This document shows positions 2,263 to 40,589 of a stretch of DNA of 64,000 nt, one piece after another (position 1 is the first letter of the stretch; each line of letters opens with the position of its first letter). The position numbers and the translations under genes are program-made. Where the stretch lies: contig JAGTJW010000002.1 of assembly GCA_023657425.1 (NCBI GenBank), forward strand, positions 50,431 through 114,430, given 5' to 3'. The DNA is from Ideonella sp. WA131b (GTDB lineage: Bacteria > Pseudomonadota > Gammaproteobacteria > Burkholderiales > Burkholderiaceae_C). The notes under the pieces are model-generated. The model was given only the letters and a program-made list of their open reading frames with translations. It did no database searches and had not been told where the DNA came from.

Positions 2263-2649
2263 TCACGCACCAACCACCGCATGCTTGCGCAGCCACTCGA
2301 TGAGCACGAAGTCCAGCGCCCGGGCGTGCGTGCTCTCCAGCACCACCGGCGGCGCGCAACCGGCCTCGTAGGCCTCGCGCCAGCGCAGCGCGCACACGCA
2401 CCAGCGGTCACCCGGCTTCAGACCCGGGAAGCGGTGCTCGGGCCGCGGCGTGATGAGGTCGTTGCCACGCTCCATCTGGAAGTTCAGGAAGCCCACCGTC
2501 ACCTTGGCGCAGATCACGTGGCTGCCGTGATCTTGCGCGTCGGTGTGGCAGCAGCCGTCACGGTACCAGCCGGTCAGCGGGTCGTAGCCGCAGGGCAGCA
2601 GCGCGGTGCCCAGCACATTGAGGGCCCGGTCGCGTCGGGTCTCGGCCAT
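2263..2649 (-). CDS. DUF2237 family protein
   Basis: NVLG..L.PC, TGWYRDGCC, GNDLITPRPE, GLKPGDRWCVCA motifs. Confidence 0.9.
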   Translation of the reverse strand: MAETRRDRALNVLGTALLPCGYDPLTGWYRDGCCHTDAQDHGSHVICAKVTVGFLNFQMERGNDLITPRPEHRFPGLKPGDRWCVCALRWREAYEAGCAPPVVLESTHARALDFVLIEWLRKHAVVGA

Positions 2650-2652
2650 GGC

Positions 2653-3573
2653 TCACTTGCCGGGGGCCGACCCGCCCTTGCCCAACAGCGACATCGCCGT
2701 CCCGATCAGCGCCGACACCTCGGTCATGTTGCCCGGCACGATCATCGTGTTGTTGGTGCGCGCGAGGTTGGCATAGGCATCCACCGCCTTCTCGGCCACC
2801 TTCAGCTGCACCGCCTGCTCACCGCCGGGCTCCTGGATGGCAGCGGCGATCTTGCGAATGGCCTCGGCCGTGGCCTCGGCCACCGCGCTGATCGCCGCGG
2901 CCTCGCCTTGGGCGTTGTTGATCTCGGCCTGCTTCTCGCCCTCGGAGCGGGCGATGAAGGCCTCGCGCTCGCCGGTGGCGATGTTGATCTGCTCCTGGCG
3001 ACGGCCCTCGGAGGCCGCGATCAGCGCGCGTTTCTCGCGCTCGGCCGTGATCTGCGCCTGCATCGAACGCAGGATCTCGGCCGGCGGGGTGAGGTCCTTG
3101 ATCTCGTAGCGCAGCACCTTCACGCCCCAGTTCATGGCCGCCTCGTCGAGCGAGCTCACGACACTGGCGTTGATGAGGTCGCGCTCCTCGAAGGTCTTGT
3201 CGAGCTCCATCTTGCCGATCACGCTGCGCAGCGTCGTCTGCGCCAACTGCGAGATGGCCACCAGATAGTCGCTGCTGCCATAGCTGGCGCGCATCGGGTC
3301 CGTCACCTGGAAATACAGGATGCCGTCGACCTGCAGCTGCGTGTTGTCGCGCGTGATGCACACCTGGCTGGGCACGTCCAGAGGCACCTCCTTGAGCGAA
3401 TGCTTGTAGGCCACGCGCTCGACGAAGGGGATGACGAACTTCAGGCCCGGTGTCAGCGTGCGGTCGTACTTGCCCAGCCGCTCGACGACCCAGGCGTTCT
3501 GCTGCGGCACGATCTTGAAGGTGCGGACGATGAAGATCACCGCGATGACGGCGACGATGAGTGCGATTTCCAT
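2653..3573 (-). CDS. SPFH/band 7 (paraslipin/QmcA-like) membrane protein
   Basis: N-terminal TM, VERLGKY, AQTTLRSVIG, WGVKVLRYEIKD, QITAEREKRA. Confidence 0.92.
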   Translation of the reverse strand: MEIALIVAVIAVIFIVRTFKIVPQQNAWVVERLGKYDRTLTPGLKFVIPFVERVAYKHSLKEVPLDVPSQVCITRDNTQLQVDGILYFQVTDPMRASYGSSDYLVAISQLAQTTLRSVIGKMELDKTFEERDLINASVVSSLDEAAMNWGVKVLRYEIKDLTPPAEILRSMQAQITAEREKRALIAASEGRRQEQINIATGEREAFIARSEGEKQAEINNAQGEAAAISAVAEATAEAIRKIAAAIQEPGGEQAVQLKVAEKAVDAYANLARTNNTMIVPGNMTEVSALIGTAMSLLGKGGSAPGK

Positions 3574-3603
3574 GGTTCGGGCCTGAAGAAGGTGGAGGAG
3601 GGG

Positions 3604-4044
3604 TCAGCGTGCCGGCGCCGGCTGCACGAGCAACTCGCTGCCGTGCACGGCGACGATCACGTGTTCTCCGGCGGCCGGTGTGCCGCTGCCGCCGAAACGC
3701 ACCGACCACATCGCGCCCCGGTAGCTGACGCGCGCCGAGCCGTCGGCCTGCCACGCGGGCACCTGCAGCCGCTGGCCGATATCGAGGTTGACGTCGCGGT
3801 TGGCCTCGGCCGGCGCGCTGCGCGGTGCACGGGCACGCCGCAGGTGCCACACCGCCGTGGCGCCCGACGACAGCGCCGCGGCAATGGCCACCTGCGCCGC
3901 GCCCGGCAGGCCGGCATGGGCGGCCAGCGCGCCGGCTGCGGCACCCAACGCCACCATCAAGAGGTAGAAGGTGCCGGTGGCCAGCTCGGCGGCCACGAGG
4001 GCGCCGGCCAGCAGCCACCAGAGGGTCGGGCTCGACAAGTCCAT
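3604..4044 (-). CDS. NfeD family protein (YbbJ-like)
   Basis: Hydrophobic N-terminus (WWLLAGALVAAEL..GTFYLL), OB-fold C-terminus (YRGAMW); directly upstream of the SPFH gene. Confidence 0.88.
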   Translation of the reverse strand: MDLSSPTLWWLLAGALVAAELATGTFYLLMVALGAAAGALAAHAGLPGAAQVAIAAALSSGATAVWHLRRARAPRSAPAEANRDVNLDIGQRLQVPAWQADGSARVSYRGAMWSVRFGGSGTPAAGEHVIVAVHGSELLVQPAPAR

Positions 4045-4170
4045 AGGTCAGAACTCTCCTGGAGAAGCAGTGTAGGCGTGGTGTCACGGAGGCGGCGCCC
4101 TCGGCCCCTACACTGCGCGGCCTTGCCGCGGTCTTGCGGCCGCGCCTTCACACGAGAACCTGCCGCCGCC

Positions 4171-6429
4171 ATGCTGCGATTTCGATTCCCCATTGTGATC
4201 ATCGACGAAGACTACCGGTCCGAGAACACCTCTGGACTCGGTATCCGCGCGCTGGCCGAGGCCATTCAGAAGGAGGGCTTCGAGGTGCTGGGCGCCACCA
4301 GCTACGGCGACCTGAGTCAGTTCGCGCAGCAGCAAAGCCGCGCCAGCGCCTTCATCCTGAGCATCGACGACAACGAGTTCACGCCGGGCCCCGAGCTCGA
4401 CCCGGCGGTGCTGAACCTGCGCAAGTTCATCGAGGAGATCCGCTGGAAGAACGCCGACATCCCGATCTACGTCTACGGCGAGACGCGCACCAGCCAGCAC
4501 CTGCCCAACGATGTGCTGCGTGAGCTGCACGGCTTCATCCACATGTTCGAGGACACGCCGGAGTTCGTGGCCCGGCACATCATCCGCGAGGCCAAGAGCT
4601 ACCTCGACGGTCTGGCGCCGCCGTTCTTCAAGGCGCTGATGGACTACGCCCAAGACGGCTCCTACAGCTGGCACTGCCCGGGCCACAGCGGCGGCGTGGC
4701 CTTCCTGAAGAGCCCGGTGGGCCAGATGTTCCACCAGTTCTTTGGCGAGAACATGCTGCGCGCCGATGTCTGCAACGCGGTGGAGGAACTGGGCCAGCTG
4801 CTCGACCACACCGGCCCGGTGGCGGCGTCTGAGCGCAACGCGGCGCGCATCTTCAACGCCGACCACTGCTTTTTCGTCACCAACGGCACCAGCACCAGCA
4901 ACAAGATGGTGTGGCACCACTGCGTGGCGCCGGGCGACGTGGTGGTGGTGGACCGCAACTGCCACAAGAGCATCCTCCACAGCATCATCATGACGGGCGC
5001 CGTGCCGGTGTTCCTGACGCCCACGCGCAACCACTACGGGATCATCGGCCCCATCCCCAAGAGCGAGTTCAGCCCCGAGACCATCCGCGCCAAGATCGCC
5101 GCGCACCCGCTGCTGCAGGACCGCGACCCGGCCACGGTGCAGCCCAAGATCGTCACGCTCACGCAGAGCACCTACGACGGCGTGCTCTACAACACCGAAG
5201 ACATCAAGCACAGCCTCGACGGCTTCGTGGACACGCTGCACTTCGACGAGGCCTGGCTGCCGCACGCGGCCTTCCACCCGTTCTACGGCAGCTTCCACGC
5301 CATGGGCAAGAAGCGCGCGCGGCCGAAGAAGGCGGTGGTGTACGCCACGCAGAGCACGCACAAACTGCTGGCCGGCCTGAGCCAGGCCAGCCAGGTGCTG
5401 GTGCAGGACTCGCAGGAGGTCAAGCTCGACCGCCACCTCTTCAACGAGGCTTACCTGATGCACACCAGCACCAGCCCGCAGTACGCCATCATCGCCAGCT
5501 GCGATGTGGCCGCGGCGATGATGGAGCCGCCCGGCGGCACCGCGCTGGTGGAGGAGAGCATCGCCGAGGCGCTGGATTTCCGGCGCGCCATGCGCAAGGT
5601 CGACGCCGAGTTCGGCAAGGACTGGTGGTTCCAGGTCTGGGGCCCGGAGCAGCTGGCCGAGGAGGGCATCGGCCGCAGCGCCGACTGGATGCTGCACGCC
5701 GACGAGGACTGGCACGGCTTCGGCCCGCTGGCCGAGGGCTTCAACCTGCTGGATCCCATCAAGAGCACCGTGATCACGCCGGGCCTGGGCGTGGACGGGC
5801 GCTTCGCCGCCACCGGCATCCCGGCGTCCATCGTCACCAAGTTTCTGGCCGAGCACGGGGTGGTGGTCGAGAAGACGGGGCTGTACTCGTTTTTCATCAT
5901 GTTCACCATCGGCATCACCAAGGGCCGCTGGAACACGCTGGTGACGGCGCTGCAGCAGTTCAAGGACGACTACGACCGCAACGCGCCGCTGTGGCGCATC
6001 CTGCCGGAGTTCTGTGCCGCCCACCCGCGCTACGAGCGCATGGGCCTGCGCGACCTCTGCCAGGCCATCCACGAGGCCTACGCGCAGGGCGACATCGCGC
6101 GCCTCACGACCGAGGTCTACCTGTCCGACCTGCAGCCCGCGATGACGCCCTCGGAGGCTTACGCGCACATTGCGCACCGGCGCACCGAGCGCGTGGCCAT
6201 CGATGATCTGGAGGGCCGCGTCACCACCGCGCTGCTGACGCCCTATCCGCCGGGCATTCCGCTGCTGGTGCCGGGCGAGCGCTTCAACCGGCGCATCGTC
6301 GACTACCTGCGCTTCACGCGGCAGTTCAACGCGCAGTTCCCGGGCTTCGCAACCGACGTGCACGGCCTGGTGGCCGAAGAGGGCGCGGGCGGCGAGCGGC
6401 GCTACTACGTCGATTGCGTGCGCGGCTGA
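4171..6429 (+). CDS. PLP-dependent arginine/lysine/ornithine decarboxylase (752 aa)
   Basis: Start MLRFRFPIVIID; WHCPGHSGG, FVTNGTSTSNK, HFDEAW, TQSTHKLL (PLP lysine), PYPPGIP. Confidence 0.95.
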   Translation: MLRFRFPIVIIDEDYRSENTSGLGIRALAEAIQKEGFEVLGATSYGDLSQFAQQQSRASAFILSIDDNEFTPGPELDPAVLNLRKFIEEIRWKNADIPIYVYGETRTSQHLPNDVLRELHGFIHMFEDTPEFVARHIIREAKSYLDGLAPPFFKALMDYAQDGSYSWHCPGHSGGVAFLKSPVGQMFHQFFGENMLRADVCNAVEELGQLLDHTGPVAASERNAARIFNADHCFFVTNGTSTSNKMVWHHCVAPGDVVVVDRNCHKSILHSIIMTGAVPVFLTPTRNHYGIIGPIPKSEFSPETIRAKIAAHPLLQDRDPATVQPKIVTLTQSTYDGVLYNTEDIKHSLDGFVDTLHFDEAWLPHAAFHPFYGSFHAMGKKRARPKKAVVYATQSTHKLLAGLSQASQVLVQDSQEVKLDRHLFNEAYLMHTSTSPQYAIIASCDVAAAMMEPPGGTALVEESIAEALDFRRAMRKVDAEFGKDWWFQVWGPEQLAEEGIGRSADWMLHADEDWHGFGPLAEGFNLLDPIKSTVITPGLGVDGRFAATGIPASIVTKFLAEHGVVVEKTGLYSFFIMFTIGITKGRWNTLVTALQQFKDDYDRNAPLWRILPEFCAAHPRYERMGLRDLCQAIHEAYAQGDIARLTTEVYLSDLQPAMTPSEAYAHIAHRRTERVAIDDLEGRVTTALLTPYPPGIPLLVPGERFNRRIVDYLRFTRQFNAQFPGFATDVHGLVAEEGAGGERRYYVDCVRG

Positions 6430-23731: not shown

Positions 23732-24313
23732 TCAGCCGCGCGCCCGATCGGCAGCGACACGCCGCCCTTGTTCACGCCGCCGCCGCTCGCGCCAGATCAG
23801 CACCGCCCAGCCCCAGTAGACCACCCCATAGGCGGCCACGCCCAGCACCAGGCCCGCCAGCGGGAAACCGGCCAGCAGGGCCGGCCCCCACGAGGTGATC
23901 TGCTCCCACAGCGCGCCGGGCCAGGACAGCGGATCGCTCCAGACCCACTCCACCGGTGTCGGCGCGACCGTGCCGGGGGTGGCCCTGGGCACGACGAAGG
24001 AACCCAGCCAGGCCGACAGCGCCCAGATCGGCGCCATCGTGAACGGGTTCGTCAGCCAGGTGGCCGCGGCGGCGGCGGCCACGTTGGCGCGCAGCGCCAC
24101 GGCGGCAAGCATGGCCGCCGGCATCTGCAGCGGCAACGGGAACACGCCGATGCCGATGCCCAGGGCCACGCCGAGCGCCACGCTGTGGCGATGCAGCACC
24201 CACAGCCGCGGGTGCTCACGCAGGTAGTGGCCCAGCCAGGCGAAACCACGGGTTTCTTCGAGCGTTTGGGCGGTGGGCAGCCAGCGGCGGAGGCGCTTCT
24301 TGAATTCGGGCAT
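23732..24313 (-). CDS. DUF2062 family membrane protein
   Basis: RLWVLHRHSVALGVALG, FPLPLQM, LRANV, TWLTNPFT. Confidence 0.85.
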   Translation of the reverse strand: MPEFKKRLRRWLPTAQTLEETRGFAWLGHYLREHPRLWVLHRHSVALGVALGIGIGVFPLPLQMPAAMLAAVALRANVAAAAAATWLTNPFTMAPIWALSAWLGSFVVPRATPGTVAPTPVEWVWSDPLSWPGALWEQITSWGPALLAGFPLAGLVLGVAAYGVVYWGWAVLIWRERRRREQGRRVAADRARG

Positions 24314-24372: not shown

Positions 24373-26898
24373 TCAAGGCTTGGCGGGCCTTGCTTCCGGG
24401 GAGTCGTCGGGAGGCGGCGCGAACAGCGGCCTGCCACGGCGCTCGCGCCAGTCACCCAGCAGCAGGAGCATCGGCGCAGCGACGAACACCGATGTGCAGG
24501 CCGCGATGACGATCCCGACCGCCATCGGGATGGCAAAGCTCGCAACCGCCGAGCCGCCCCAGACGGCCAGCGGCAGGATGGCCAGGAACGCCGTCACCGA
24601 GGTGTACAGGCTGCGCGTGAGCGTCTGGTTGATGGACTTGTCGATCACCTCGCGCAGGCTGCGGTTGCGCCGGCTCTGCAGGTTCTCGCGCATGCGGTCG
24701 TACACCACGACCTTGTCGTTCACCGAGTAGCCCACCAGCGTGAGCAGCGCCGCGATGGCGGTGAGGCTGAAGTCGAGCCGGGTCCACGCGAACACGCCGA
24801 GCGTGAGCACCACGTCCAGCAACAGCGTGGCGATGGCGCCCACGGCGAACGGCCACTCGAAGCGCACCCAGATGTAGACGAGCATCGCCAGCGTCGCCAG
24901 CACCATGGCCATCAGGCCGGCCCGCGTGAGCTCGCCGCTGACCTTGGGGCCAACCACCTCGCTGCGTTCGAAGTTCGCCTCGGGGTCGATGGCGCGCATC
25001 GCGGCCTTCAGCTTCTCGACAGCCTGGGTCTGCGCCACTTCGCCGCCGGCTTGCCGCTCCACGCGCACAAGCAGGCGGTCGCCTTCGCCCATGGTTTGCA
25101 GCGCGACTTCGCCGAGGCCGAGCTGGTCGAGCCCGGCGCGGAAGCGGGACAGGTCGTCGGGCTGCGTGACCGCCACCTCCATCTGGATGCCGCCGCGGAA
25201 GTCGATGCCGAAGTTCAGCCCCGGCTTGGCCAGGGACGTCACAGAGGCCAGCGCCAGCACCGCCGACACCAGCATCGTCGCCACGCCCAGCCGCATGAAG
25301 CCCACGTTCGTGCCGTCGGGCACGGGCCTGAAACCGAAAAGCGGCCGGATCTCCAGCGTCTTGAGCTTGCGCCGCCGGGCGATCGACAGCATCGCCACCT
25401 TCACCACCGAGACCGCGGTGAACATCGAGATCAGGATGCCCAGCGCCATGGTGATGGCGAATCCCCTCACCGGCCCGGAACCGAACGAGAACAGCAGCAC
25501 CGTGGCGATCAGGGCCGTGACGTTGCTGTCCATCACGGTGGCGTAGGCGCGGCGGAATCCCGAATCGATGGCCGTCAGCGCCGCCTTGCCCTTGAGAGTC
25601 TCCTCGCGGATCCGTTCATTGATGAGCACGTTGGCGTCCACCGCCAGCCCGATGCCGAGCACGATGCCCGCGATGCCGGGCAGCGTGAGCGTGGCTCCGA
25701 GCATGCTCATGCCGGCGATGGTGAGCACCACGTTGATGGCCAGGGCGGCGTTGGCCAGCAAGCCCCAGCCGCCATAGAGCACCACCATGAAGGCGAACAC
25801 GAACACGAAGGCGCCGATGCCCGCGAGGATGCCCTTGCGGATGACGTCGCTGCCCAGGTCGGCGCCCACGTTGCGTTCCTCGATCACCGTCAGTTTGGCC
25901 GGCAGCGCGCCGGCCCGCAGCAACGCAGCCAGGGTGCCGGCCTCCTGTACGGTGAAGCCGCCGGAGATCTGTCCCGCGCCGCCGGTGATGGGCTCGCGGA
26001 TGACCGGCGCGCTGAGCACCTTGTCGTCGAGCACGATCGCGAACGGACGGCCGACGTTGGCCTCGGTGATCGCGGCGAAGGCGCGCGCGCCTGCGCGGTC
26101 GAAGCGGAAGTTGACGATCGGTTCGCGGGTCTGCGTATCGAATCCCGCGCTGGCGTCGACCAGCCGGTCGCCCGAGAGCACAACGCGTCGGTTGATGGGG
26201 TAGGACTGGCCCTCGGCGTCCTGCATCGGGCGCACGCCCTCGGGGCTGGCTGCTTCTCCGAGCAGGTGGAAGCTCATCTTCGCGGTCGAACCCAGCAGCG
26301 CGCGCAGCTGCGCAGGGTCCTGCAGGCCGGGCAACTGCACCAGGATGCGGTTGGGCCCGACCCGCTGGATGGTGGGCTCGGACACGCCAACCTGGTCGAC
26401 GCGCTTGCGGATGACCTCCAGGCTCTGTTCCACCGCACGGTCGATGGCGATCTTCCGGCCCTCTTCGGTGAAGGTGAGCCCGAGGCCGCTTGAGCCCTGG
26501 GGGCGTACGTCGAGGTCGGGGCGACCCGATGGGCCGGGCCTGACGAGGCTGTCCAGCTGGTCTTGCGCGCGCGTCAGGTCGGACGGGTCGCGCAGTTCGA
26601 CGCTCAGGCCTTGCTGGTGGATGTTCAGGGCACGGATCGGCAGCGAGGCCTCGCGCAGGACACGACGCGTGTCGTCGGCCAGCGATCGCGCGCGGTCGTC
26701 GAGCAAGGCTGCGCCATCGACCTCGAGCACCAGGTGCGAGCCACCGCGCAGATCGAGTCCCAGGGCTAAGGGGCGGTCGGGCAGGAAGGCCGGCCAGCGT
26801 TCCAGCACGGAAGAAGGCAGCACGTTCGGCAGGGCGAACAGCAAGCCGCAGAGGATGATGGCCAGGTAACTGGCCACCCGGTAAGGGGAGTTCTTCAT
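24373..26898 (-). CDS. secDF: fused protein translocase subunit SecDF (841 aa)
   Basis: LGLDLRGG, RVDQVGVSEP, DANVLINERIREE (SecD half); GIDFRGG, GYSVNDKVVVYDRMRE, QTLTRS (SecF half), all in one ORF. Confidence 0.95.
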   Translation of the reverse strand: MKNSPYRVASYLAIILCGLLFALPNVLPSSVLERWPAFLPDRPLALGLDLRGGSHLVLEVDGAALLDDRARSLADDTRRVLREASLPIRALNIHQQGLSVELRDPSDLTRAQDQLDSLVRPGPSGRPDLDVRPQGSSGLGLTFTEEGRKIAIDRAVEQSLEVIRKRVDQVGVSEPTIQRVGPNRILVQLPGLQDPAQLRALLGSTAKMSFHLLGEAASPEGVRPMQDAEGQSYPINRRVVLSGDRLVDASAGFDTQTREPIVNFRFDRAGARAFAAITEANVGRPFAIVLDDKVLSAPVIREPITGGAGQISGGFTVQEAGTLAALLRAGALPAKLTVIEERNVGADLGSDVIRKGILAGIGAFVFVFAFMVVLYGGWGLLANAALAINVVLTIAGMSMLGATLTLPGIAGIVLGIGLAVDANVLINERIREETLKGKAALTAIDSGFRRAYATVMDSNVTALIATVLLFSFGSGPVRGFAITMALGILISMFTAVSVVKVAMLSIARRRKLKTLEIRPLFGFRPVPDGTNVGFMRLGVATMLVSAVLALASVTSLAKPGLNFGIDFRGGIQMEVAVTQPDDLSRFRAGLDQLGLGEVALQTMGEGDRLLVRVERQAGGEVAQTQAVEKLKAAMRAIDPEANFERSEVVGPKVSGELTRAGLMAMVLATLAMLVYIWVRFEWPFAVGAIATLLLDVVLTLGVFAWTRLDFSLTAIAALLTLVGYSVNDKVVVYDRMRENLQSRRNRSLREVIDKSINQTLTRSLYTSVTAFLAILPLAVWGGSAVASFAIPMAVGIVIAACTSVFVAAPMLLLLGDWRERRGRPLFAPPPDDSPEARPAKP

Positions 26899-26987
26899 GG
26901 ACGAAACCGGAAGGGCGAGCACCGGGCGCTGCCTGGTACTCGCCAACTGACGTTGAGAGCGGGTGGCGCGCCAGTGGCACGCCGACG

Positions 26988-27380
26988 TCAGGCCTCGGAG
27001 GGAGGGCCCCGGCAACCCGACGAACGCGGGCAGGCCCGGTAGATCCCGGGATCAGGAGCGGGCGCCGTGCCGGCGTCATCGCTGGCCGGCGGAGGTCTCG
27101 TGTCGCTGGGTGGCGGTGCTGCGCTGGGTGTATCGGTCCCGCCGGGGGCGGGCTGCCAGGCCTGGGCTAGCCAGTCCGTCTGCGACACCGCCAGGTCGCG
27201 GCGCAAACCCCGCAGCGTTGCCACACAGCCCGTGGGCCGCTGCAGCGCGAGCTGGCCAGCTTCGAGGGCTCCGACGAGTGCACCATCGGCGGGCGCCGGT
27301 GACGCCGTCGCCGGCCTGCTGGCAAGCGCCAATCCCAGGCCCAGAACGACCGTGATCCAAAGCGCACGAAACCAGCTCAT
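26988..27380 (-). CDS. putative secretion-monitor ribosome-arrest peptide (ApdP/SecM-like uORF), 130 aa
   Basis: GGAG SD 10 nt before ATG; signal peptide MSWFRALWITVVLGLGLALASRPATA; Pro-rich linker; C-terminal ...SGCRGPPSEA*; stop 90 nt upstream of secDF. Confidence 0.72.
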   Translation of the reverse strand: MSWFRALWITVVLGLGLALASRPATASPAPADGALVGALEAGQLALQRPTGCVATLRGLRRDLAVSQTDWLAQAWQPAPGGTDTPSAAPPPSDTRPPPASDDAGTAPAPDPGIYRACPRSSGCRGPPSEA

Positions 27381-27522
27381 GCCGCGGATTCTCCAGCAGG
27401 CCAGGGCCCGACCATCCTGCGCCTGGACGAAGAGTCCCCGAGCCTGCCGCATTTCGGCCAGGCAAGCCTGTCATCAGACGGACCCGCACTCCCGCTTTCA
27501 GGGACCGGCATCCGGAAGCTGA

Positions 27523-27554
27523 GTGCTGCCCGGACCAGTCGTCTCGGGCAGCAC
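27523..27554. other. 10-bp hairpin between terC and the uORF
   Basis: GTGCTGCCCG-N12-CGGGCAGCAC; no U tract. Confidence 0.4.
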
Positions 27555-27570
27555 CTCCATCTCCATAAGG

Positions 27571-28623
27571 TCAAGGGACCGGGGCATCCACGGCACCACG
27601 GCGGGTCTTCCACAGCGAGAACAGCACACCGCCCGCCAGCAGGCCCGCCGTCACCGACAGGCTCAGCGCGGCCGGCACCTTGCCGTCGAACAGCCAGTCA
27701 CCCAGGAAGATCTTGGCGCCGATGAAGATGAGCACGATGGACAACGCGTACTTCAGGTAGTGGAAGCGGTGCACCACGGCGGCCAGCGCGAAGTACAGCG
27801 CGCGCAGGCCCAGGATGGCGAAGATGTTGCTCGTGTAGACGATGAAGGCGTCGGGTGTGATGGCGAAGATGGCCGGCACGGAGTCGATCGCGAACACCAG
27901 GTCGGCGATCTCCACCAGCACGAGGCACAGGAAGAGGGGTGTGGCCCAAAGCACGACCTTGCCGGTCTTGGGGTCGGGCTGGCGGACCCAGAAGCGCTGG
28001 CCATGCAGCTGCTCGGTCACGCGCAGGCGCTTGCGCAGGAACTTCAGCACCGGGTTGTTCTCGATGTCCGGCTTGCTGTCCATCATCACGATCATCTTGA
28101 TGCCGGTGGCAATCAGGATGACGGCGAAGATGTACATGACCCACGAGAACTCCGCCACCAGCGCGGCGCCCAGGCCGATCATGATGGCGCGCAGCACGAT
28201 CACGCCCAGGATGCCCCAGAACAGCACGCGGTGCTGGTACTCGCGCGGCACTGCGAAGTACGTGAAGATCATCGAGATGATGAACACGTTGTCCAGGGCC
28301 AGTGTCTTCTCCACCAGATAGCCGGTGATGTACAGCTGCACGGCCGTCCAGGCGCGTTCGCCGGCCGAGGCGGCCTCGGCGATCTGTGGGTCGATCGAGC
28401 TGGTGCCGGAGTAGGTGTGGTAGATCCAGTACACGGCGCCGGCCCAGGCCAGGCCCAGGCCGATGTACAGCGCCGACATGTTCAGGCTCTCGCGCACGCC
28501 GATCTCGTGCACCTCGCGGTTCATGATGCCGAGGTCGAAGGCCAGGATGGCCAGGACAACGGCGATGAACGCCAGCCATATCCAGGCCGGCATGCCCAGC
28601 CAGAGGGTGAAGAGAAATTCCAT
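27571..28623 (-). CDS. TerC/Alx family metal homeostasis membrane protein
   Basis: FDLGI, GYLVEKTLALDNVF, QHRVLFWGILG, DLVFAIDSVPA, YTSNIFAILGLRALYF. Confidence 0.93.
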   Translation of the reverse strand: MEFLFTLWLGMPAWIWLAFIAVVLAILAFDLGIMNREVHEIGVRESLNMSALYIGLGLAWAGAVYWIYHTYSGTSSIDPQIAEAASAGERAWTAVQLYITGYLVEKTLALDNVFIISMIFTYFAVPREYQHRVLFWGILGVIVLRAIMIGLGAALVAEFSWVMYIFAVILIATGIKMIVMMDSKPDIENNPVLKFLRKRLRVTEQLHGQRFWVRQPDPKTGKVVLWATPLFLCLVLVEIADLVFAIDSVPAIFAITPDAFIVYTSNIFAILGLRALYFALAAVVHRFHYLKYALSIVLIFIGAKIFLGDWLFDGKVPAALSLSVTAGLLAGGVLFSLWKTRRGAVDAPVP

Positions 28624-29640: not shown

Positions 29641-29944
29641 GAGCGCGAACGTCTTTCGCGCCGGCCCGCTCGTCCTTGCACAGGCCCGCCGCAGCCCGAG
29701 CCCATTGTGGGCTTGACGCCCGGATCGGGGGTCTTTGGACGCGTCGCCCGGGCACGCCCGAACAAACTCGCGCGCTCTTGGGATGCGGGTGCTGGCAGAG
29801 CCCATGCACCCACCGACGTTGCATGATCCGGCGTCCGGCGCCACCGGCGGAGACCAGCGGTCGCCCTGCAGCAGAACCACACGGGATGGCCCGCCGGGCC
29901 TCCCGGCCATCGGCCCTCGGGCCGTCATTTCCACAGCCCCAGCG

Positions 29945-32900
29945 ATGACCGAATCGACAGCCTCCGACACCGCCCGCGGCACCACCGAGCCCTTGCCCGT
30001 GCCGCCGCCACAGCCGCTGCGCAACCCCCTGCGCACGCGCGCCGACTGGGAGCGCCAGCGCCAGGCCTGCCTGGCCGACCCCGGTGCCTTCCACGGGGCC
30101 ATCGCCGCACGCGAGATCCACTGGTGGGTGCCCGCCGGGGCCGACCCCGCCATCGGCGCGGGCGGCGCCTGGCTCACGTTCGACGAGGCCGGCGGCACCT
30201 GGCGCGGCTGGTGCGCCGCCAGCGCCGGGCCGGTGGCCACCGCGCTGGGTGAGGGCTTCATGCCCTGGGCGCGCGCCTTCGACGACACACAGCCGCCGCA
30301 CTGGCGCTGGTTCAGCGGCGGCTGCACCAACGCCGGCTTCAACGAGGTCGACCGCCACGTGCTGGCCGGCCACGGCGACGAAGACGCCGTCATCTACGAA
30401 GGGGACCGCTGGGACATGGCTGCCGACGGCGGCCGCGGCGCGCCGCTGGAAAGCGAACGCATCAGCCGCCGCCGCCTGCTGCTGGAGACGGCCAAGTGCG
30501 CCGTGGCGCTGCGTGCCTTGGGCCTGAAGCCCGGCGACCGCATCGCGCTGAACCTGCCCAACATCCCGCAGCAGCTCTACTGGACCGAGGCCGCCAAGCG
30601 GCTGGGCATCGTCTACACGCCGGTGTTCGGCGGCTTCTCCGACAAGACCCTGTCCGACCGCATCCACGACGCCGGTGCCCAGGTGGTGATCACCGCCGAC
30701 GGCGGCTACCGCATGGCGCAGGTGGTGCCCTACAAGACCGCCTACACCGACCCCGCGCTCGACAACTTCGTGCCGCTGGCCACCGCCCGCGCCGTGGTGG
30801 CGGCGCGGCTGCCGACGCTGACCCTGAGCCCGGCGCAGTCGCAGCGCCTGCTGGCTGTGCTGGACGAAGCCCTGGCCGGCGAGGTGACGCTGCTGCGCGG
30901 CGACGTGATGCGCGGCGTGGGCCGCGCGCTGGCCGAGCTGGGCCGCGCCGGCCTGGCCGCCGAGGCCGCAGGGCAGGTGCGCGTGGCGCTGGCCGAGGCC
31001 CTGGTGCACACACCGCCGCGCGTGCAGACGGTGGTGGTGGTGCGCCACACGGCGCAGCCCGATCTGGTGTGGCGCCCCGAGCGCGACCGCTGGGCCCACG
31101 AGCTGACCGACGCCGCGCTCGCCCCGCTGCTGCAGGCCGCGGGCGTGGCCAACGAGGCCGCCATGCTGGCCTTGCCCGCGGCCGAGCTGGTGCGCGCGGT
31201 GTGGGCCGTGGTGCCGCCGCTGAAGCTGGATGCCGAGGTGCCGCTCTTCTTCATCTACACCAGCGGCTCCACCGGCAAGCCCAAGGGCGTGGTGCACGTG
31301 CACGGCGGCTACACCGCGGGCGTGGCGCACACCATGAAGGTGGCCTTCGACGCCCGCCCCGGCGAGGTGATGTACGTCGTGGCCGACCCCGGCTGGATCA
31401 CCGGCCAGAGCTACATGATCAGCGCCGCGCTCACCACGCGCGTGACCAGCGTCATGACCGAGGGCGCGCCGGTGTTCCCGCACGCCGGGCGCTTCGCATC
31501 GATCATCGAGCGCTACCGCGTGGCCATCTTCAAGGCCGGCGTCACCTTCCTGAAGACGGTGATGACCGACCCGCAGAACGCCCAGGACGTGCAGCGCCAC
31601 GACATGCGCTCGCTGCGCGTGGCCACCTTCTGCGCCGAGCCCACGAGCCCGGCGGTGCAGCAGTTCGGCATGGGGCTGATGACGCCCTGGTACATCAACA
31701 GCTACTGGGCCACCGAGCACGGCGGCATCGCCTGGACGCACTTCTACGGCAACGGCGACTTCCCCCTGCGCGCCGACGCCCACACCTACCCGCTGCCGTG
31801 GATCGTGGGCGACGTGCGGATTGAAGACGCCACGGCGCCGGCACCCGCGGCGCTGCCGTTCGCCCCGTTCGCCCGTGCGGCAGGCGAGGGCGGCGCCCCC
31901 TGGCGCGAGGCCGCCGCAGGCGAGAAGGGCGAGATCGTCATCGCCGCCCCGTACCCCTACCTGGCGCGCACGGTGTGGGGCGATGCGGAAGGCTTCCGCC
32001 TCGAGCCCGCGGGCGCCCATGGCGTGGGCCTGCGCGTGGTGCCCGCCTGGCGCGGCGACGGCGAGCGCTGGCGCAAGACCTACTGGACGCGCTGGCAGGG
32101 CGCCTGGGCCTACACGCAGGGCGACTTCGCGGTGCGCCACGCCGACGGCGGCTATTCGCTGCACGGCCGCAGCGACGACGTCATCAACGTCAGCGGCCAC
32201 CGCATCGGCACCGAAGAGATCGAAGGCGCCATCCTGCGCGACAAGACGCTGGACCCGGATTCGCCCGTGGGCAACGTCATCGTGGTGGGCGCGCCGCACC
32301 GCGAGAAGGGGCTCACGCCGCTGGCCTTCGTCAAGCCCGCCGCCGGCCGCCGCCTGAGCCAGGACGACCGCCGCCGCCTGGCCGACCTCGTGCGCCAGGA
32401 AAAGGGCGCCGTCGCCGTGCCCGGCGACTTCATCGAGGTGACGCAGTTCCCCGAAACACGCAGCGGCAAATACATGCGCCGCATGGTGCGCGCGCTGGTG
32501 GAAGACTTGCCCGTGGGCGACGCGACGACGCTGAAGAACCCGGAGTCCATCGAGGAGCTGGCGCGCGCCATCGGCGCCTGGAAGCGCGCGCAGCAGCTGG
32601 CCGACGAGCAGCAGCTCTTCGAGCGCCACCGCTACTTCCGCATCCAGGTCAACGCGATCGCGCCGGGGCGCCGCGTGGCGACCGTGTTCGTCACCAACCC
32701 GCCGGTGAACGCACTCAACGAGCGCGCGCTCGACGAGCTCAACCTCGTGGTCGACCACCTGGCGCGGCGCGACGACATGGCCGGCGTGGTGTTCACCGGC
32801 GACGGCGGCAGCTTCATCGCCGGGGCCGACATCCGGCAGCTGCTGGAAGAGGTGCGCCACATCGAGCAGGCGCGTGTGCTGCCCCACAACGCGCAGCTCG

Positions 32901-35521
32901 CCTTCAGCCGCATCGAGGCCATGGCCGCGGCCGGCAAGCCCTGCATCGCCGCCATCAATGGCGTGGCCCTGGGCGGTGGCCTGGAGTTCGCGCTGGCCTG
33001 CCACTGGCGCATCGCCGAGCCGGTGGCGCGTTTCGGGCAGCCCGAGATCCGCCTGCGCCTGCTGCCCGGCTACGGCGGCACGCAGCGCCTGCCGCGGCTG
33101 CTGCACGCCCGCCGCGGCGCCGCGGGGCTGGTGGATGCGCTGGAGCTGGTGCTGGGCGGGCGTTCGGTGGATGCCGCCACGGCGGCGCAGATGGGCCTGG
33201 TGGACGAGCTGGCGCAGGGCGCCGACGACGCGCTTTCGCTGGCACACCAGCGGCTGCGCGAGTTTGTGCGGCACGGCGAAGACTCACCGCTCGGCCGCGC
33301 CCTGGCCGCGCGCCGCGCGATGACAGCGCAGTGGGCGCAGCCGCTGCCCGGCCTGCCGGCGGTGCTGGATGCCGCGCTGGCCGACCCCCACCTGCGCAGG
33401 GTGCAGGCGCAGCTGGCCTGGGCCGGCCGCGGCACGGCGCGCGACCGTGCGCTCGACGCGCTGGCCACCGGCCTGCGCGAGGGCCTGGCCGCCGGCCTGG
33501 CGCGCGAGGCCGAACTGTTTGCGCAGGCCATCGTCGACCCCGAGGGGGGCAAGACCGGCATCGCCGAGTTCATGGACAAGCGCAGCCCGCCGCTGCCCAT
33601 GCGCCGCGGCGGCGTGCGCCGGCCGGCGCGCGAGCCGGGTCTGGTGGATGAGCTCGTGGCCCAGGGCCAGCTGCTGCCGCTGGGGGCGCCTTTCTTCCCG
33701 GGCGTGACGCCGCTGCCGGCCTGGCAGCTTGGCTTTGGCGTCGAACGCGATCCCGACACCGGCGCGCCGCGTTTCGGCCCGCCGCTGGCCAGCGAGGTCG
33801 AGCTGCTGTTCCCGGTGCCGCGGCCCGGCCCCAACGAGGCCGTGGTCTACGTGCTGGCGTCTGAAGTGAACTTCAACGACATCTGGGCACTCACCGGCAT
33901 CCCCGTCTCGGCCTTCGACGGCCACGAGGAAGACATCCAGATCACCGGCAGCGGCGGCGTGGCCTTGGTGGCCGCACTCGGCAGCGAGGCCCGCCGCGAA
34001 GGCCGGCTGAAGGTGGGCGACCTCGTTTCCATCTACTCGGGCCAGACCGAGCTGCTCTCGCCGCAGGCCGGGCGCGACCCCATGTTCGCGGCTTTTCGCA
34101 TCCAGGGCTACGAGAGCGAGACCGGCAGCCACGCGCAGTTCTTGCTCGTGCAGGCGCCGCAGCTGCACCCGGTGCCGGCCGACCTGACGCTGGAGCAGGC
34201 CGGCGCCTACACGCTGAACCTGGGCACCGTGAACCGCGCGCTGTTCACCACGCTGCAGGTGCGGCCGGGGCAGACGCTGTTCGTCGAAGGCGCGGCCACC
34301 GGCACGGGCCTGGATGCGCTGAAGACCGCCGTGCGCGCCGGGCTGAGCGTGACGGGCGGCGTGTCGAGCGCGGAGCGCGCCGCGGCCGTCGTGCGCGAAG
34401 GCGCGGTCGGCGCGCTCGACCGCCGTTCACCAGGCTTTGCAGCGCTGTACACGCCAGTGCCCGAAGGCGAAGAGGCCACCCGTGCCTGGGAGGCTGCCGG
34501 CGAGCCGCTGCTGGCGGCCTACCGCGCACTCAATGGCGGGCGCCTGGCCGACTGCGTGGTGTCGCATGCCGGTGAGACGGCGTTTGCGCGCAGCTTCCAG
34601 CTGCTGGCCAAGGGCGGCGCGCTGGCCTTCTACGGCGCCAGCTCGGGCTATCACTTCAGCTTCGTGGGCAAGGCCGGCCACGCCACGCCCGAGGCCATGC
34701 TGGCCCAGGCGCAGGCCCAGGCGGGCGAGTCGGTGCTGCTGTACTACGGCATCGACGGCCCGGCCCTGCTGGACGCCACCGGCCTGGCCATGCTCGAGGC
34801 CCTGCGCGCGATGGGCGCGCGCACGGTGGTGGCCTGCGCCAGCGACGCGCAGCGCGAGTTCGTGCAGTCGCTGGGCTTCGAAGACGCGCTGGCCGGCGTC
34901 GTCTCGCTCGAAGAAGTGCAGCGCCGCGCCGGCCTCGCCTTCCACTGGCCCCGCAGCATGCCGCGCCTGCCCGACGCCCGGGGCGACACCGAGGCCTTCA
35001 AGCAGGCCGTGCGCGACTTCCAGGAGAAGACGCTCAAACCTTTCGGCAACGCCGTGGGCGCCGCGCTGCGCAGCCCCGACAACCCGCGCGGCGCGCCCGA
35101 TCTCGTCATCGAGCGCGCCGGGCACGATGCGCTGGGCGTGTCGACGGCGCTGGTGAAGCCCTACACCGGCCGCGTCGTCTACTTCGAGAGCCTGGCGCAC
35201 CGCCGCTACAGCTTCTACGCGCCGCAGGTGTGGACGCGGCAGCGCCGCATCCTCATGCCGACGGCCCACATCCTGGGCACGCACCTGTGCAACGCCTTTG
35301 AAGTGACGCGCATGAACGACCGCATCGCCGCCGGGCTGCTGGCGGTGACCGAACCGACCGTGGTGCCCTGGGCGCAGCTGCCGCAGGCCCACCAGGCCAT
35401 GTGGGACAACGCCCACGCCGGTGCCACCTACCTCGTCAACCACGCGCTGCCGGCCCTGGGCCTGCGCGGGCGCGATGCGCTGCTGGAGCGCTGGGCGGCG
35501 GGCGAGCGGGCAACTCCTTGA
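29945..35521 (+). CDS. pcs: trifunctional propionyl-CoA synthase (acyl-CoA synthetase + enoyl-CoA hydratase + acrylyl-CoA reductase), ~1858 aa
   Basis: YTSGSTGKPKG, YWATEHGG, PETRSGKYMRR (ACS); NPPVNALN, GGGLEFALAC, PGYGGTQRLPR (ECH); SEVNFNDIW, GSHAQF, YTLNLGT (MDR reductase). Confidence 0.88.
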   Translation: MTESTASDTARGTTEPLPVPPPQPLRNPLRTRADWERQRQACLADPGAFHGAIAAREIHWWVPAGADPAIGAGGAWLTFDEAGGTWRGWCAASAGPVATALGEGFMPWARAFDDTQPPHWRWFSGGCTNAGFNEVDRHVLAGHGDEDAVIYEGDRWDMAADGGRGAPLESERISRRRLLLETAKCAVALRALGLKPGDRIALNLPNIPQQLYWTEAAKRLGIVYTPVFGGFSDKTLSDRIHDAGAQVVITADGGYRMAQVVPYKTAYTDPALDNFVPLATARAVVAARLPTLTLSPAQSQRLLAVLDEALAGEVTLLRGDVMRGVGRALAELGRAGLAAEAAGQVRVALAEALVHTPPRVQTVVVVRHTAQPDLVWRPERDRWAHELTDAALAPLLQAAGVANEAAMLALPAAELVRAVWAVVPPLKLDAEVPLFFIYTSGSTGKPKGVVHVHGGYTAGVAHTMKVAFDARPGEVMYVVADPGWITGQSYMISAALTTRVTSVMTEGAPVFPHAGRFASIIERYRVAIFKAGVTFLKTVMTDPQNAQDVQRHDMRSLRVATFCAEPTSPAVQQFGMGLMTPWYINSYWATEHGGIAWTHFYGNGDFPLRADAHTYPLPWIVGDVRIEDATAPAPAALPFAPFARAAGEGGAPWREAAAGEKGEIVIAAPYPYLARTVWGDAEGFRLEPAGAHGVGLRVVPAWRGDGERWRKTYWTRWQGAWAYTQGDFAVRHADGGYSLHGRSDDVINVSGHRIGTEEIEGAILRDKTLDPDSPVGNVIVVGAPHREKGLTPLAFVKPAAGRRLSQDDRRRLADLVRQEKGAVAVPGDFIEVTQFPETRSGKYMRRMVRALVEDLPVGDATTLKNPESIEELARAIGAWKRAQQLADEQQLFERHRYFRIQVNAIAPGRRVATVFVTNPPVNALNERALDELNLVVDHLARRDDMAGVVFTGDGGSFIAGADIRQLLEEVRHIEQARVLPHNAQLAFSRIEAMAAAGKPCIAAINGVALGGGLEFALACHWRIAEPVARFGQPEIRLRLLPGYGGTQRLPRLLHARRGAAGLVDALELVLGGRSVDAATAAQMGLVDELAQGADDALSLAHQRLREFVRHGEDSPLGRALAARRAMTAQWAQPLPGLPAVLDAALADPHLRRVQAQLAWAGRGTARDRALDALATGLREGLAAGLAREAELFAQAIVDPEGGKTGIAEFMDKRSPPLPMRRGGVRRPAREPGLVDELVAQGQLLPLGAPFFPGVTPLPAWQLGFGVERDPDTGAPRFGPPLASEVELLFPVPRPGPNEAVVYVLASEVNFNDIWALTGIPVSAFDGHEEDIQITGSGGVALVAALGSEARREGRLKVGDLVSIYSGQTELLSPQAGRDPMFAAFRIQGYESETGSHAQFLLVQAPQLHPVPADLTLEQAGAYTLNLGTVNRALFTTLQVRPGQTLFVEGAATGTGLDALKTAVRAGLSVTGGVSSAERAAAVVREGAVGALDRRSPGFAALYTPVPEGEEATRAWEAAGEPLLAAYRALNGGRLADCVVSHAGETAFARSFQLLAKGGALAFYGASSGYHFSFVGKAGHATPEAMLAQAQAQAGESVLLYYGIDGPALLDATGLAMLEALRAMGARTVVACASDAQREFVQSLGFEDALAGVVSLEEVQRRAGLAFHWPRSMPRLPDARGDTEAFKQAVRDFQEKTLKPFGNAVGAALRSPDNPRGAPDLVIERAGHDALGVSTALVKPYTGRVVYFESLAHRRYSFYAPQVWTRQRRILMPTAHILGTHLCNAFEVTRMNDRIAAGLLAVTEPTVVPWAQLPQAHQAMWDNAHAGATYLVNHALPALGLRGRDALLERWAAGERATP

Positions 35522-38214: not shown

Positions 38215-38751
38215 GGCGCGGCCACGACCCGCAGATCCTGGCGTCAGCGTCGAGGGGATCTCACAGGACCACAGCATCAACACCGATCAGCAGTTGGGGC
38301 AACGGCCTCGTGTTGCGGATCATGAAGCCCATGGCCAAGACAGCAGGGGTGGTCGGAGGCTCTCCCGGTTCGGGAAACGGTCAAGCCAGGCCGCTGAAGT
38401 CCTCGCCGCGAAAGAAGTGGCCACCGATGAAGCCCGTGCCAAGCCCATAGGCGATGCCCCCATCGACGCCTTCCGGCCAGCCACTGACTTTGGCTCTGCC
38501 AGGGGCCAGAGCCACCGCCCGCGTTCCCAGGAATCTCGCCTGGCCAGAACTGTCGGCGCGGACTTGACTGAGGATCGCTCGGCCGAAGCCGACCGCGGCA
38601 CGAGCCCGCCGGGCCAGGCAACAGAGCTGGAGAGCCACGGCGCGCCGGGTGGCTCCGCACAGAGCACGGTGCGAGAACTCTCCAGGCAACCACAGCCGCC
38701 CATCAAGAGTGGCATCGTCGATCGCTTATCGAGAGTCGCCATCGCTCTGGC

Positions 38752-38779
38752 TCAAGTTTCTGAGGCTCTGCGACGAAAA
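38752..38779 (+). promoter_or_regulatory. putative sigma28 (FliA) promoter
   Basis: TCAAGTTT-N12-GACGAAAA versus consensus TAAAGTTT-N11-GCCGATAA; 40 nt upstream of an MCP. Confidence 0.4.
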
Positions 38780-38819
38780 CACATGGAATCTCAACCCTTG
38801 GATCTCGGACGCAAGCCCC

Positions 38820-40589
38820 ATGAAACTCTCGACCTTGACCATCGGCCGTCGACTTCAGCTCGGCTTCGGCATCATCCTGGCGATCCTTGCCGCAGTGGCT
38901 GGCACTGCGATGTTGAGAGTGGGAGCCATCGAGGCGGCCCTGAAGTCCAACAGCCAGGAACACACCCACATTCAGCGCTACGCCATCAATTTCCGCGGAT
39001 CGGCGCATGACCGCGCCATTGCCGCACGCGACTACGTGCTGGCCGCCTCCGCAGAATTGCGGCAGAAAGAAGCGGCCACCATCGACGCGTTGGCCAAGTT
39101 CTATGCCGATTCGGCCCAGCCGCTGGAAAAGTTGATCGGCCAGTCTGCAGACGGTGCCGAGCTCCAGCGGCTGTATGGCGCCATCAAGGAGATCGAGAGC
39201 GAGTCGGTCGCCACCACCAAGGCCTTGATCGCCGCCGTTGACCAGGGTGACGCCGCAACCGCCCAGACACTCTTGTGGTCCAAAGCGAAACCGCAGTACG
39301 AGCAATGGCTGGCGTCGATCAACAAGCTGATCGACTTTGAAGAGGCGAAAGTCCAGACCCACAACAAGATCGCGCTTGAAGAGGCTGCCGGCTTTCGTGC
39401 CGTCATGCTGACGGCATTGGCGCTGGCCCTGGGTTGCGGCATCGGCATGGCCTGGGTCATCTCTCGCAGCATCGTCTCGCAGCTGGGTGCCGAGCCGGCT
39501 GCCCTGGGCGAAGCGGCCCACCGCGTTGCCGCAGGCGACCTGAGCAGCGTGCCTGGCGCGGCTCAGGCTCCGGCCGGCAGCGTGCTGGCGTCCCTGGGCG
39601 CGATGCAGGAAGCCCTGGCACGCGTCGTCGGCCAGGTGCGCCAGGCCTCCGAGTCGATCGCTACGGGCTCGACCGAGATCGCCAATGGCAACTCGGACCT
39701 GTCCCAACGCACGGAGTTGCAGGCGGGCAACCTGCAGCAGACCGCGGCCACCATGGAGCAACTGGGCACCACGGTTCGCAACAACGCCGACAGTGCCAAG
39801 CAGGCGAATCAGCTGGCGCAGAGCGCCTCAGCCGTGGCGGCGCAAGGCGGGGAAGTGGTGGGCAAGGTGGTCACCACGATGCAGGGCATCAACGACAGCA
39901 GCCGCAAGATTGGCGACATCATCAGCGTCATCGACGGCATTGCCTTCCAGACCAACATCCTGGCCCTGAACGCGGCGGTCGAGGCCGCACGGGCCGGTGA
40001 GCAAGGTCGCGGCTTTGCCGTCGTGGCGTCCGAAGTGCGCAGCCTGGCCCAACGCAGCGCCGAGGCAGCCAAGGAGATCAAGACCCTCATCGGCCGCAGC
40101 GTCGAGCAGGTGGAGCAAGGCACGGTGCTGGTCGACCAGGCGGGCAAGACGATGGGGGAGATCGTGGGTTCGATCCAGCGCGTCAGCGGCATCGTCGCTG
40201 AGATCACCTCGGCCACGGTCGAGCAAAGCTCTGGCGTCCGGCAAGTCGGCGAGGCCGTCAGCCAGATGGACCAGGCCACGCAGCAGAACGCCGCGCTCGT
40301 GGAGGAGAGCGCCGCCGCCGCCGAAAGCCTGAGGGGCCAGGCACAGCAACTGGTGCAGGCCGTCGCGGTGTTCAAGCTGTCCCATGAATCGCATGCGGGT
40401 GCAGCCTACGCAGCACAGCCGGCAGCCAACGCGCCCAGCGGCGAGCGCCGCGGCCCTCACCGGGCCACGAACGTCACCCGTCCGGCGTTCGAGGCAAGAC
40501 CGGCTGCGGCATCGGCGCCGGCCGGCGAGCCGAGCAAGGGGGCCTGCGCCCCGGAAAAAACGGGCACCGACGACTGGGCGTCGTTCTGA
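38820..40589 (+). CDS. methyl-accepting chemotaxis protein
   Basis: Two TM helices flanking a helical sensor domain; [33 protein letters not shown]; C-terminal DWASF pentapeptide. Confidence 0.95.

Follow-up and report, generated by a model that had tools for sequence, protein, structure and literature searches.

An ApdP-like candidate secretion monitor with an RGPP core upstream of secDF in Burkholderiales

The closest described systems are arrest peptides encoded by small upstream open reading frames (uORFs) in front of sec genes. ApdP of Sinorhizobium medicae (140 aa, R131APP134) stalls the ribosome with RAP in the P site and proline in the A site (PMC7897499). By cryo-EM, the A-site tRNA accommodates on RAPP and peptide-bond formation is prevented (PMC10951233). 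Hairpins masking the Shine-Dalgarno (SD) sequence were not found for ApdP by the 2021 authors (PMC7897499). A 2024 survey, which covered over 30,000 genomes, described an 'RQH family' of RAPP-like uORFs, RGPP included, upstream of secA and secDF; before secDF it comprises 11 order-level groups plus orphans (PMC10987492). In that scheme ApdP is restricted to Alphaproteobacteria, with 293 uORFs classed as such, and repeated independent emergence of RAPP peptides is favored by the authors (PMC10987492). One group, uDF_RQH_Enterobacterales, contains the only RGPP-secDF pair with demonstrated arrest-dependent induction, the 131-aa R125GPP uORF of Alteromonas naphthalenivorans, in which stalling opens an SD-masking stem-loop and induces secDF2 (PMC10987492). 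In a 2025 study, arrest in the ApdP, ApcA, and SecM contexts was most robust with RGPP, and this arrest resists EF-P (PMC12992588). The same study reported RGPP to be the most avoided tetrapeptide in bacterial proteomes and to be overrepresented close to the C-terminal ends of small secreted proteins encoded before sec genes, and RDPP to be partially permissive for arrest (PMC12992588).

Because RAPP and RGPP uORFs before secDF were already catalogued in 2021, 2024, and 2025 (PMC7897499, PMC10987492, PMC12992588), the uORF described here belongs to a known kind, and the earlier note on this DNA overrated its novelty. By the 2024 nomenclature its sequence would make it a secDF-upstream RQH member in Burkholderiales. 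Members from this order are not mentioned in the texts of the 2024 and 2025 papers or in the portions covered of the 2024 supplementary tables (PMC10987492, PMC12992588), and a prior listing is possible. What is new is limited to an uncultured Burkholderiales host lineage and to evolutionary and mechanistic detail.

The window, the whole 64,000-nucleotide stretch of DNA that was analyzed, carries the candidate arrest peptide on its minus strand (26988..27380). The uORF has its ATG at 27380, its stop codon TGA at 26990-26988, and 130 codons in between, encoding MSWFRALWITVVLGLGLALASRPATASPAP...YRACPRSSGCRGPPSEA. It is preceded by an SD sequence, GGAGAA (27389..27394, minus strand), located 8 nt 5' of the ATG. 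Counterparts aligned with the ATG are found at the locus of the nearest homologue, L081 (GGGAGAA), and at L001, a Rubrivivax locus (GGGGAAG). A longer start at ATG 27452, which would give 154 aa, was rejected as the region upstream of 27380 is not conserved in L081 and L001; the 130-aa reading was also picked by gene callers for a database relative, P0001. Comparison with the 53%-identical homologue at L081 gave 34, 28, and 60 substitutions at codon positions 1, 2, and 3, respectively. The excess at position 3, the alignment of SD and ATG, and the lack of conservation further upstream argue for translation from 27380 and for selection on the uORF.

The N-terminus of the product has the n/h/c layout of a Sec signal peptide, as judged by hydropathy and -3/-1 rule heuristics. 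Residues 1-26 (MSWFRALWITVVLGLGLALASRPATA; 27303..27380, minus strand) include a single positive charge, R5, and a 15-residue hydrophobic core at positions 6-20 with a Kyte-Doolittle maximum of 2.52 over 12 aa. A-T-A occupies positions -3 to -1, and cleavage is predicted after ATA, in front of SP. The mature part is composed of 18% Ala, 17% Pro, 11% Gly, and 8% Asp; the uORF product has no match in Pfam. The earlier note's description of an SD-preceded 130-aa ORF with a Sec-type signal peptide and a Pro/Ala/Asp-rich spacer therefore holds, the signal peptide at the level of these heuristics. Within the spacer, a block spanning L46-Q67 (LQRPTGCVATLRGLRRDLAVSQ; 27180..27245, minus strand) is nearly identical in the homologue from L081, with the consensus LQRPTGCVATxRGxRRDxAxSQ. 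A QR..G....SR..RRD block is also present in four other Burkholderiales uORFs, and the alphaproteobacterial ApdPs have a separate invariant block of their own, ARD..RG. A second functional element of the peptide may reside in the mid-spacer block.

The C-terminus reads ...RACPRSSGCRGPPSEA, with the putative arrest core R124-G125-P126-P127 encoded by CGG GGC CCT CCC (27000..27011, minus strand). Only S-E-A follows before the stop codon, which places RGPP three codons from the end, as had been claimed. By analogy with ApdP (PMC7897499, PMC10951233), P126 (27005-27003) is predicted to occupy the P site and P127 (27002-27000) the A site. The U of the stop codon (TGA, 26988..26990) lies 15 nt past the first base of the predicted P-site codon, and the leading edge of a stalled ribosome would be located at about this U. 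Between A26 and P126 there are 99 residues; the class calls for an N-terminal secretion signal or transmembrane segment, here recognized heuristically, and for a gap of more than 30 residues to the arrest site. A -1 frameshift at G_GGC_CCU fusing the peptide to SecDF was considered and rejected: in most related loci the secDF frame does not stay open through the spacer, and at the window locus it is open for 51 codons upstream because of the high GC content.

The presumed regulated gene is a fused secDF of 841 aa (24373..26898, minus strand), identified from its Pfam domains (SecD_1st, SecDF_P1_head, Sec_GG, and two copies of SecD_SecF_C) and its orthologues. Its ATG at 26898 leaves a spacer of 89 nt after the uORF stop codon; the earlier note was correct in placing secDF close downstream and off by one in giving 90 nt. 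No recognizable SD was found in the 15 nt 5' of the secDF ATG (26899-26913, CUUCCGGUUUCGUCC), and it is also missing at the corresponding place in L081 and L001. CAAGGA-like sequences precede secDF in other Burkholderiales and in the Rhizobium loci. Directly 3' of secDF is a gene for a DUF2062 protein (Pfam; 23732..24313, minus strand), which keeps this order in L081 and in L082 and is probably in one operon with secDF. Pfam identifies a TerC gene upstream and, besides the DUF2062 gene, a UPF0114 gene downstream on the same strand. Metatranscriptome and metagenome contigs were uninformative as evidence of expression, the sole metatranscriptome match being a 246-nt contig internal to secDF.

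Two further ORFs of the window were noted in passing. A 1928-aa ORF (29735-35521, plus strand), divergent from a LysR gene, contains AMP-binding acyl-CoA synthetase, enoyl-CoA hydratase, and zinc-type dehydrogenase/reductase domains, an order that we take to be that of propionyl-CoA synthase of the 3-hydroxypropionate pathway. A 1382-aa ORF (2281-6429, plus strand) has Orn/Lys/Arg decarboxylase domains only in residues 652-1367, and its N-terminal half is probably an over-extension of the ORF in GC-rich DNA.

Searching 5.8 billion database proteins returned two relatives of the uORF peptide. P0001, from a JGI lake metagenome, is 99% identical and carries the name 'hypothetical protein', in line with the expectation that such a uORF would be annotated as hypothetical or missed. 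P0002, encoded at L081, is 53% identical and ends ...RSAGCRGPPERA, retaining GCRGPP plus three residues. RGPP is thus retained in both relatives, as expected of a class characterized by a conserved C-terminal motif. We also collected the 80 genome loci that encode the fused SecDFs closest to that of the window. About nine of these are from Burkholderiales, with SecDF identities of 68-88%: Rubrivivax MAGs, Hydrogenophaga, Acidovorax, a Burkholderiaceae MAG, and two copies in Ottowia thiooxydans. The others are from Alphaproteobacteria, with identities of 53-66%, and include Rhizobium, Sinorhizobium, Phyllobacterium, Brucella, Azospirillum, and others.

At 68 of the 80 genome loci, secDF is preceded by an ORF whose product has a hydrophobic segment at its N-terminus and R[AG]PP or HGPP close to its C-terminus. 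Its motif is RAPP in 59 cases, RGPP in 6, and HGPP in 3, and the tail after the motif is 3-4 residues long in 56 of the 68. The median length of these uORFs is 131 aa, and their median distance to secDF is 93 nt. With a wider motif set, a motif-bearing ORF was found upstream at 57 of 77 metagenome loci. Such an ORF is almost always present where SecDF identity is at least 53%, but occurs at only 1 of 15 loci where identity is 51% or lower. The motif, its distance to the stop codon, and the place before secDF are therefore kept in well over 100 loci from two proteobacterial classes, while the remainder of the peptide diverges. Conservation upstream of homologous secDF genes, on which the earlier note had staked its proposal, was not refuted by this comparison. 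As far as can be judged from sequence, membership in the class also stands: a small ORF before secDF combines an export signal, a gap of about 99 residues, and a conserved RGPP.

Two of the Burkholderiales genomes warrant separate description. L001 (Rubrivivax sp. MAG C8_MAG_00057, 2520-2911) encodes the closest SecDF among the genomes (88% identity). Its uORF is broken by an in-frame TAG and ends GCRDPPAAA, with RDPP replacing RGPP; both hairpins of the spacer, described below, are retained. Either the monitor has decayed in this genome, or the TAG and the RDPP are errors of MAG assembly. Ottowia thiooxydans DSM 14619 contains two diverged RAPP-uORF-secDF units, L006 and L007, on separate scaffolds, with SecDFs that are 71% and 68% identical to that of the window.

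The betaproteobacterial host proposed in the earlier note was borne out by the BipA encoded in the window, which is 83-89% identical to Burkholderiales proteins (89% to Rubrivivax MAGs and 86-88% to Tepidimonas). Reads matching the uORF-secDF locus came from lake-water metagenomes. The window SecDF is 53-66% identical to the Rhizobiales and Azospirillum copies that have a uORF. Neighbor-joining trees grouped the Burkholderiales SecDFs as monophyletic (100/100 bootstrap replicates) and as sister to the ApdP-associated SecDFs of Rhizobiaceae and Pleomorphomonas (100/100). With more distant SecDFs lacking a uORF as the root, the Burkholderiales proteins were nested within alphaproteobacterial diversity, and a clade of alphaproteobacterial proteins only was recovered in 0/100 replicates. 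Rhizobium, Allorhizobium, and Aminobacter have secDF copies that reside on a plasmid or chromid. The Allorhizobium pseudoryzae plasmid NZ_CP049243 (L083, 111478-112383) has a 900-nt gap before secD, and the incomplete gene table of PLSDB lists no gene in this gap, where an ApdP-type uORF would be expected.

The nesting of the Burkholderiales unit among alphaproteobacterial ApdP-secDF2 units suggests lateral transfer. From the sequences, and specifically from neighbor-joining trees, the simplest reading is that the whole uORF-secDF unit was transferred once, from a Rhizobiales-like donor to Burkholderiales. A profile alignment (hhalign) of 7 Burkholderiales uORFs with 15 ApdPs gave a probability of 76% and an E value of 2e-5 over the C-terminal 25 columns only. 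For this unit, common descent is a better explanation than the repeated independent emergence favored in the 2024 survey.

ApdP itself was compared with the window uORF. The gene order is the same, the downstream genes belong to one fused-SecDF clade supported in 100/100 neighbor-joining replicates, and the two peptides are similar in size (family median 131 aa) and share an N-terminal export signal. Both have R-x-P-P a few residues before the stop codon and a spacer of about 90 nt to secDF. Several differences are also apparent. The window host belongs to Burkholderiales, which places the uORF outside ApdP sensu stricto with its restriction to Alphaproteobacteria; its core is RGPP, whereas that of ApdP is RAPP, although some alphaproteobacterial members, such as those of Sinorhizobium sp. 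CB7 and Rhizobium sp. LjRoot30, have RGPP as well. The window peptide has a predicted cleavable signal peptide, whereas ApdP typically has a signal-anchor. Peptide similarity is limited to the last ~25 residues, and the window secDF has no preceding SD.

The uDF_RQH_Enterobacterales peptide resembles the window uORF in its RGPP core with a 3-residue tail, its length of ~130 aa, its position upstream of a secDF that is (in the window host, presumably) a second copy, and two predicted stem-loops in the spacer. In Alteromonas the SD is masked by stem-loop 2, and repression is relieved when this stem-loop is mutated (PMC10987492); in contrast, stem-loop 2 of the window locus ends 15 nt before an ATG that lacks a recognizable SD, and a modeled stalled ribosome does not open the start region. 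We found no evidence of common descent between these two uORFs. SecM of E. coli (...GIRAGP) is more distant: it lies upstream of secA rather than secDF, its RAGP motif needs an extended upstream sequence (FxxxxWIxxxxGIRAGP) that the window C-terminus does not fit, and for SecM regulation by SD unmasking has been demonstrated. The TnaC leader of tnaA is similar in that stalling takes place just as a short leader ORF ends, with the ribosome beside the start of a non-coding spacer. Unlike the window uORF, TnaC senses tryptophan and stalls at the stop codon; it acts by blocking Rho loading, a role that would be purely hypothetical for the window uORF.

The 89-nt spacer is predicted to fold into two stem-loops, with a z-score of -3.7 against shuffled sequences. 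Stem-loop 1 (26948..26990, minus strand) consists of an inner 8-bp GC hairpin (26983-26965) and, beginning with the uORF stop codon, an outer 6-bp stem, UGACGU/ACGUCA. Stem-loop 2 (26914..26944, minus strand) has 13 bp with one bulge per arm and ends 15 nt 5' of the secDF ATG. The inner hairpin of stem-loop 1 is kept with compensatory changes in 10-12 Burkholderiales loci. Across ten Burkholderiales spacers, 87% of the alignment cells of this hairpin and stem-loop 2 are paired, versus 18-64% with slid partners; the covariation score is 0.36 versus at most 0.18 with slid partners. Both sides have changed in 7 of 11 pairs of stem-loop 2 in the same alignment. The hairpins were rejected as intrinsic terminators since no consensus terminator was found, and U-tracts follow hairpin 1 only in some relatives. 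Rfam returned no match at gathering thresholds in the window, nor at E <= 1 in 26700-27700. We derived a covariance model from 12 Burkholderiales spacers; it recovers the window and L165 with E values of about 1e-15, and among 66 other loci, almost all alphaproteobacterial, it hit only L009 at the expected place (E = 0.22). The RNA element is either clade-specific or too diverged.

We modeled thermodynamically how a ribosome constrained at RGPP would affect the secDF start. At the window locus the energy needed to open the start region was 6.2 kcal/mol with and 6.2 kcal/mol without the ribosome, a change of -0.1 kcal/mol. Unmasking of an SD or start codon was therefore rejected for this locus, the modeled effect being nil with footprints that reach 15, 18, and 21 nt past the P-site codon's first base. 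The change exceeded 1 kcal/mol in 19 of 69 relatives, compared to 8 of 69 with a displaced control ribosome. In several relatives, including L002-L005, the stalled ribosome cuts the modeled opening cost by 2-5.6 kcal/mol, and at L002-L004, L029, L031, L036, L042, and L074 the stop-codon region pairs with sequence beside the SD. The partner of the stop-codon stem, CGUCA, lies between the hairpins at the window locus and beside the SD in L002-L004. Predicted unmasking is 0 or negative at both the window locus and L081.

Considering these data together, we propose that the uORF encodes an ApdP-like Sec-monitoring arrest peptide of the RAPP-like class that acts on secDF, and that the unit came from an alphaproteobacterium; we assign this reading a probability of roughly three in four. 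The signal peptide would emerge first and target the nascent chain to SecYEG. Arrest would set in once R124-G125-P126 has been reached and the P127 codon occupies the A site, with the R-G-P end holding the peptidyl-transferase center in a conformation that does not allow bond formation with the Pro-tRNA bound there. The stall would fall three codons before the stop, as suggested by the ApdP, ApdA, and SecM structures and by RGPP-swap experiments. We regard arrest itself as likely at this uORF. Active export would pull the chain and release the arrest; when export is limiting, the stall would persist and expression of the downstream fused secDF would rise. This last step is the weakest of the proposed mechanism, and it is supported by the strict co-inheritance of uORF and secDF and by the tail fixed at 3-4 residues. 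That the tail is fixed across the family suggests that the position of the stall matters, and it would place the leading edge of the stalled ribosome at the start of the structured spacer.

How such a stall would be transmitted to secDF is a more tentative matter. Two covarying hairpins, a secDF without an SD, and a stall site fixed at the 5' edge of the spacer lead us to suggest that arrest in this clade acts on secDF by a route other than SD unmasking. A related suggestion is that lateral transfer of whole uORF-secDF units, and not only repeated independent emergence, accounts in part for the patchy distribution of RAPP peptides. We regard this combined extension as possible rather than probable. 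Candidate links are a shielded Rho-loading region and an influence of the stalled ribosome on how the mRNA is processed or how stable it is.

A specific version, in which arrest is real and the signal to secDF is transcriptional, was weighed as an alternative. The parked ribosome would shield a Rho-loading region, C-rich and G-poor and spanning the arrest site and the proximal spacer, or would alter pausing or termination at the hairpins, such that RNA polymerase reads into secDF. Between -60 and +40 nt relative to the uORF stop, C is more frequent than G in 83-94% of 69 loci, a weak hint that fits tnaC-like Rho shielding, although the C-richness is due in part to Arg, Ala, and Pro codons and secDF itself has a comparable skew at +160 to +200. 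The short fixed tail, which places the ribosome at the border of the spacer, is consistent with this alternative, as is the lack of an SD-masking hairpin both here and, according to the 2021 authors, for ApdP (PMC7897499). A secDF without an SD may moreover be poorly translated at its 5' end and prone to polarity. Weighing against it are the missing consensus intrinsic terminator, the unstructured C-rich linker between the hairpins of only ~20 nt, and the unreliability of Rho-site prediction. We consider transcriptional signaling doubtful, if well worth keeping in view.

It is also conceivable that the monitor is a decaying relic in this sub-lineage, in which the peptide may still stall and control of secDF was lost along with the SD and its pairing with the stop region. 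The broken L001 uORF with its RDPP points in this direction, but that stop could be an assembly error, and RDPP is partially permissive for arrest (PMC12992588). So does the position of CGUCA between the hairpins, and so does the absence from the window locus, L081, and L001 of the CAAGGA-like SD of other members. Predicted unmasking is likewise 0 or negative in the window and L081 compared to +2 to +5.6 kcal/mol in L002-L005. Against loss of function, the window and L081 retain an intact ORF, SD, signal peptide, and GCRGPP plus three residues despite 47% divergence, their substitutions are in excess at third positions, and compensatory changes maintain both hairpins. Decay is accordingly an unlikely account of the window locus.

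The Sec-monitoring reading was also weighed against chance. The window has a GC content of 70%, so Arg, Gly, Ala, and Pro are common, and its six-frame translation contains 10 RGPP and 28 RAPP. Among stop-to-stop segments of at least 80 aa, 2 of 387 have R[AG]PP within the last 10 residues, and composition alone would give about 0.003 such endings per ORF. The second such segment (39997-40332, plus strand, ...RRAPPPPKA) lies off-frame inside a chemoreceptor gene (38649-40589) and was discarded as chance. An ordinary small exported Ala/Pro-rich protein with a fortuitous RGPP ending and no stalling or regulatory role, as the frequency of these residues, the lack of a Pfam match, and a GC3 of 0.76 versus 0.91 in secDF might suggest, is very improbable given the rarity of such endings among comparable segments, the avoidance of RGPP in bacterial proteomes (PMC12992588), and the conservation of motif, stop distance, and position before secDF in well over 100 loci of two classes. 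The RGPP uORF before secDF is not there by chance, and the comparative data are the stronger evidence for this.

The Sec-monitoring uORF proposed here would add to the ApdP-type secretion monitors a Burkholderiales branch that carries the strongest known arrest core, RGPP. Genes of this kind are routinely missed or named hypothetical in annotation. The uORF travels with its secDF across proteobacterial classes, which argues for functional coupling of the two and for lateral transfer as one source of the patchy distribution. The combination of an SD-less secDF start with covarying hairpins offers a concrete system in which to ask how ApdP-type arrest becomes secDF expression, and coupling by a route other than SD unmasking, if true, would bear on a question that the 2021 work left unanswered, namely how secDF2 is controlled by ApdP-type peptides.
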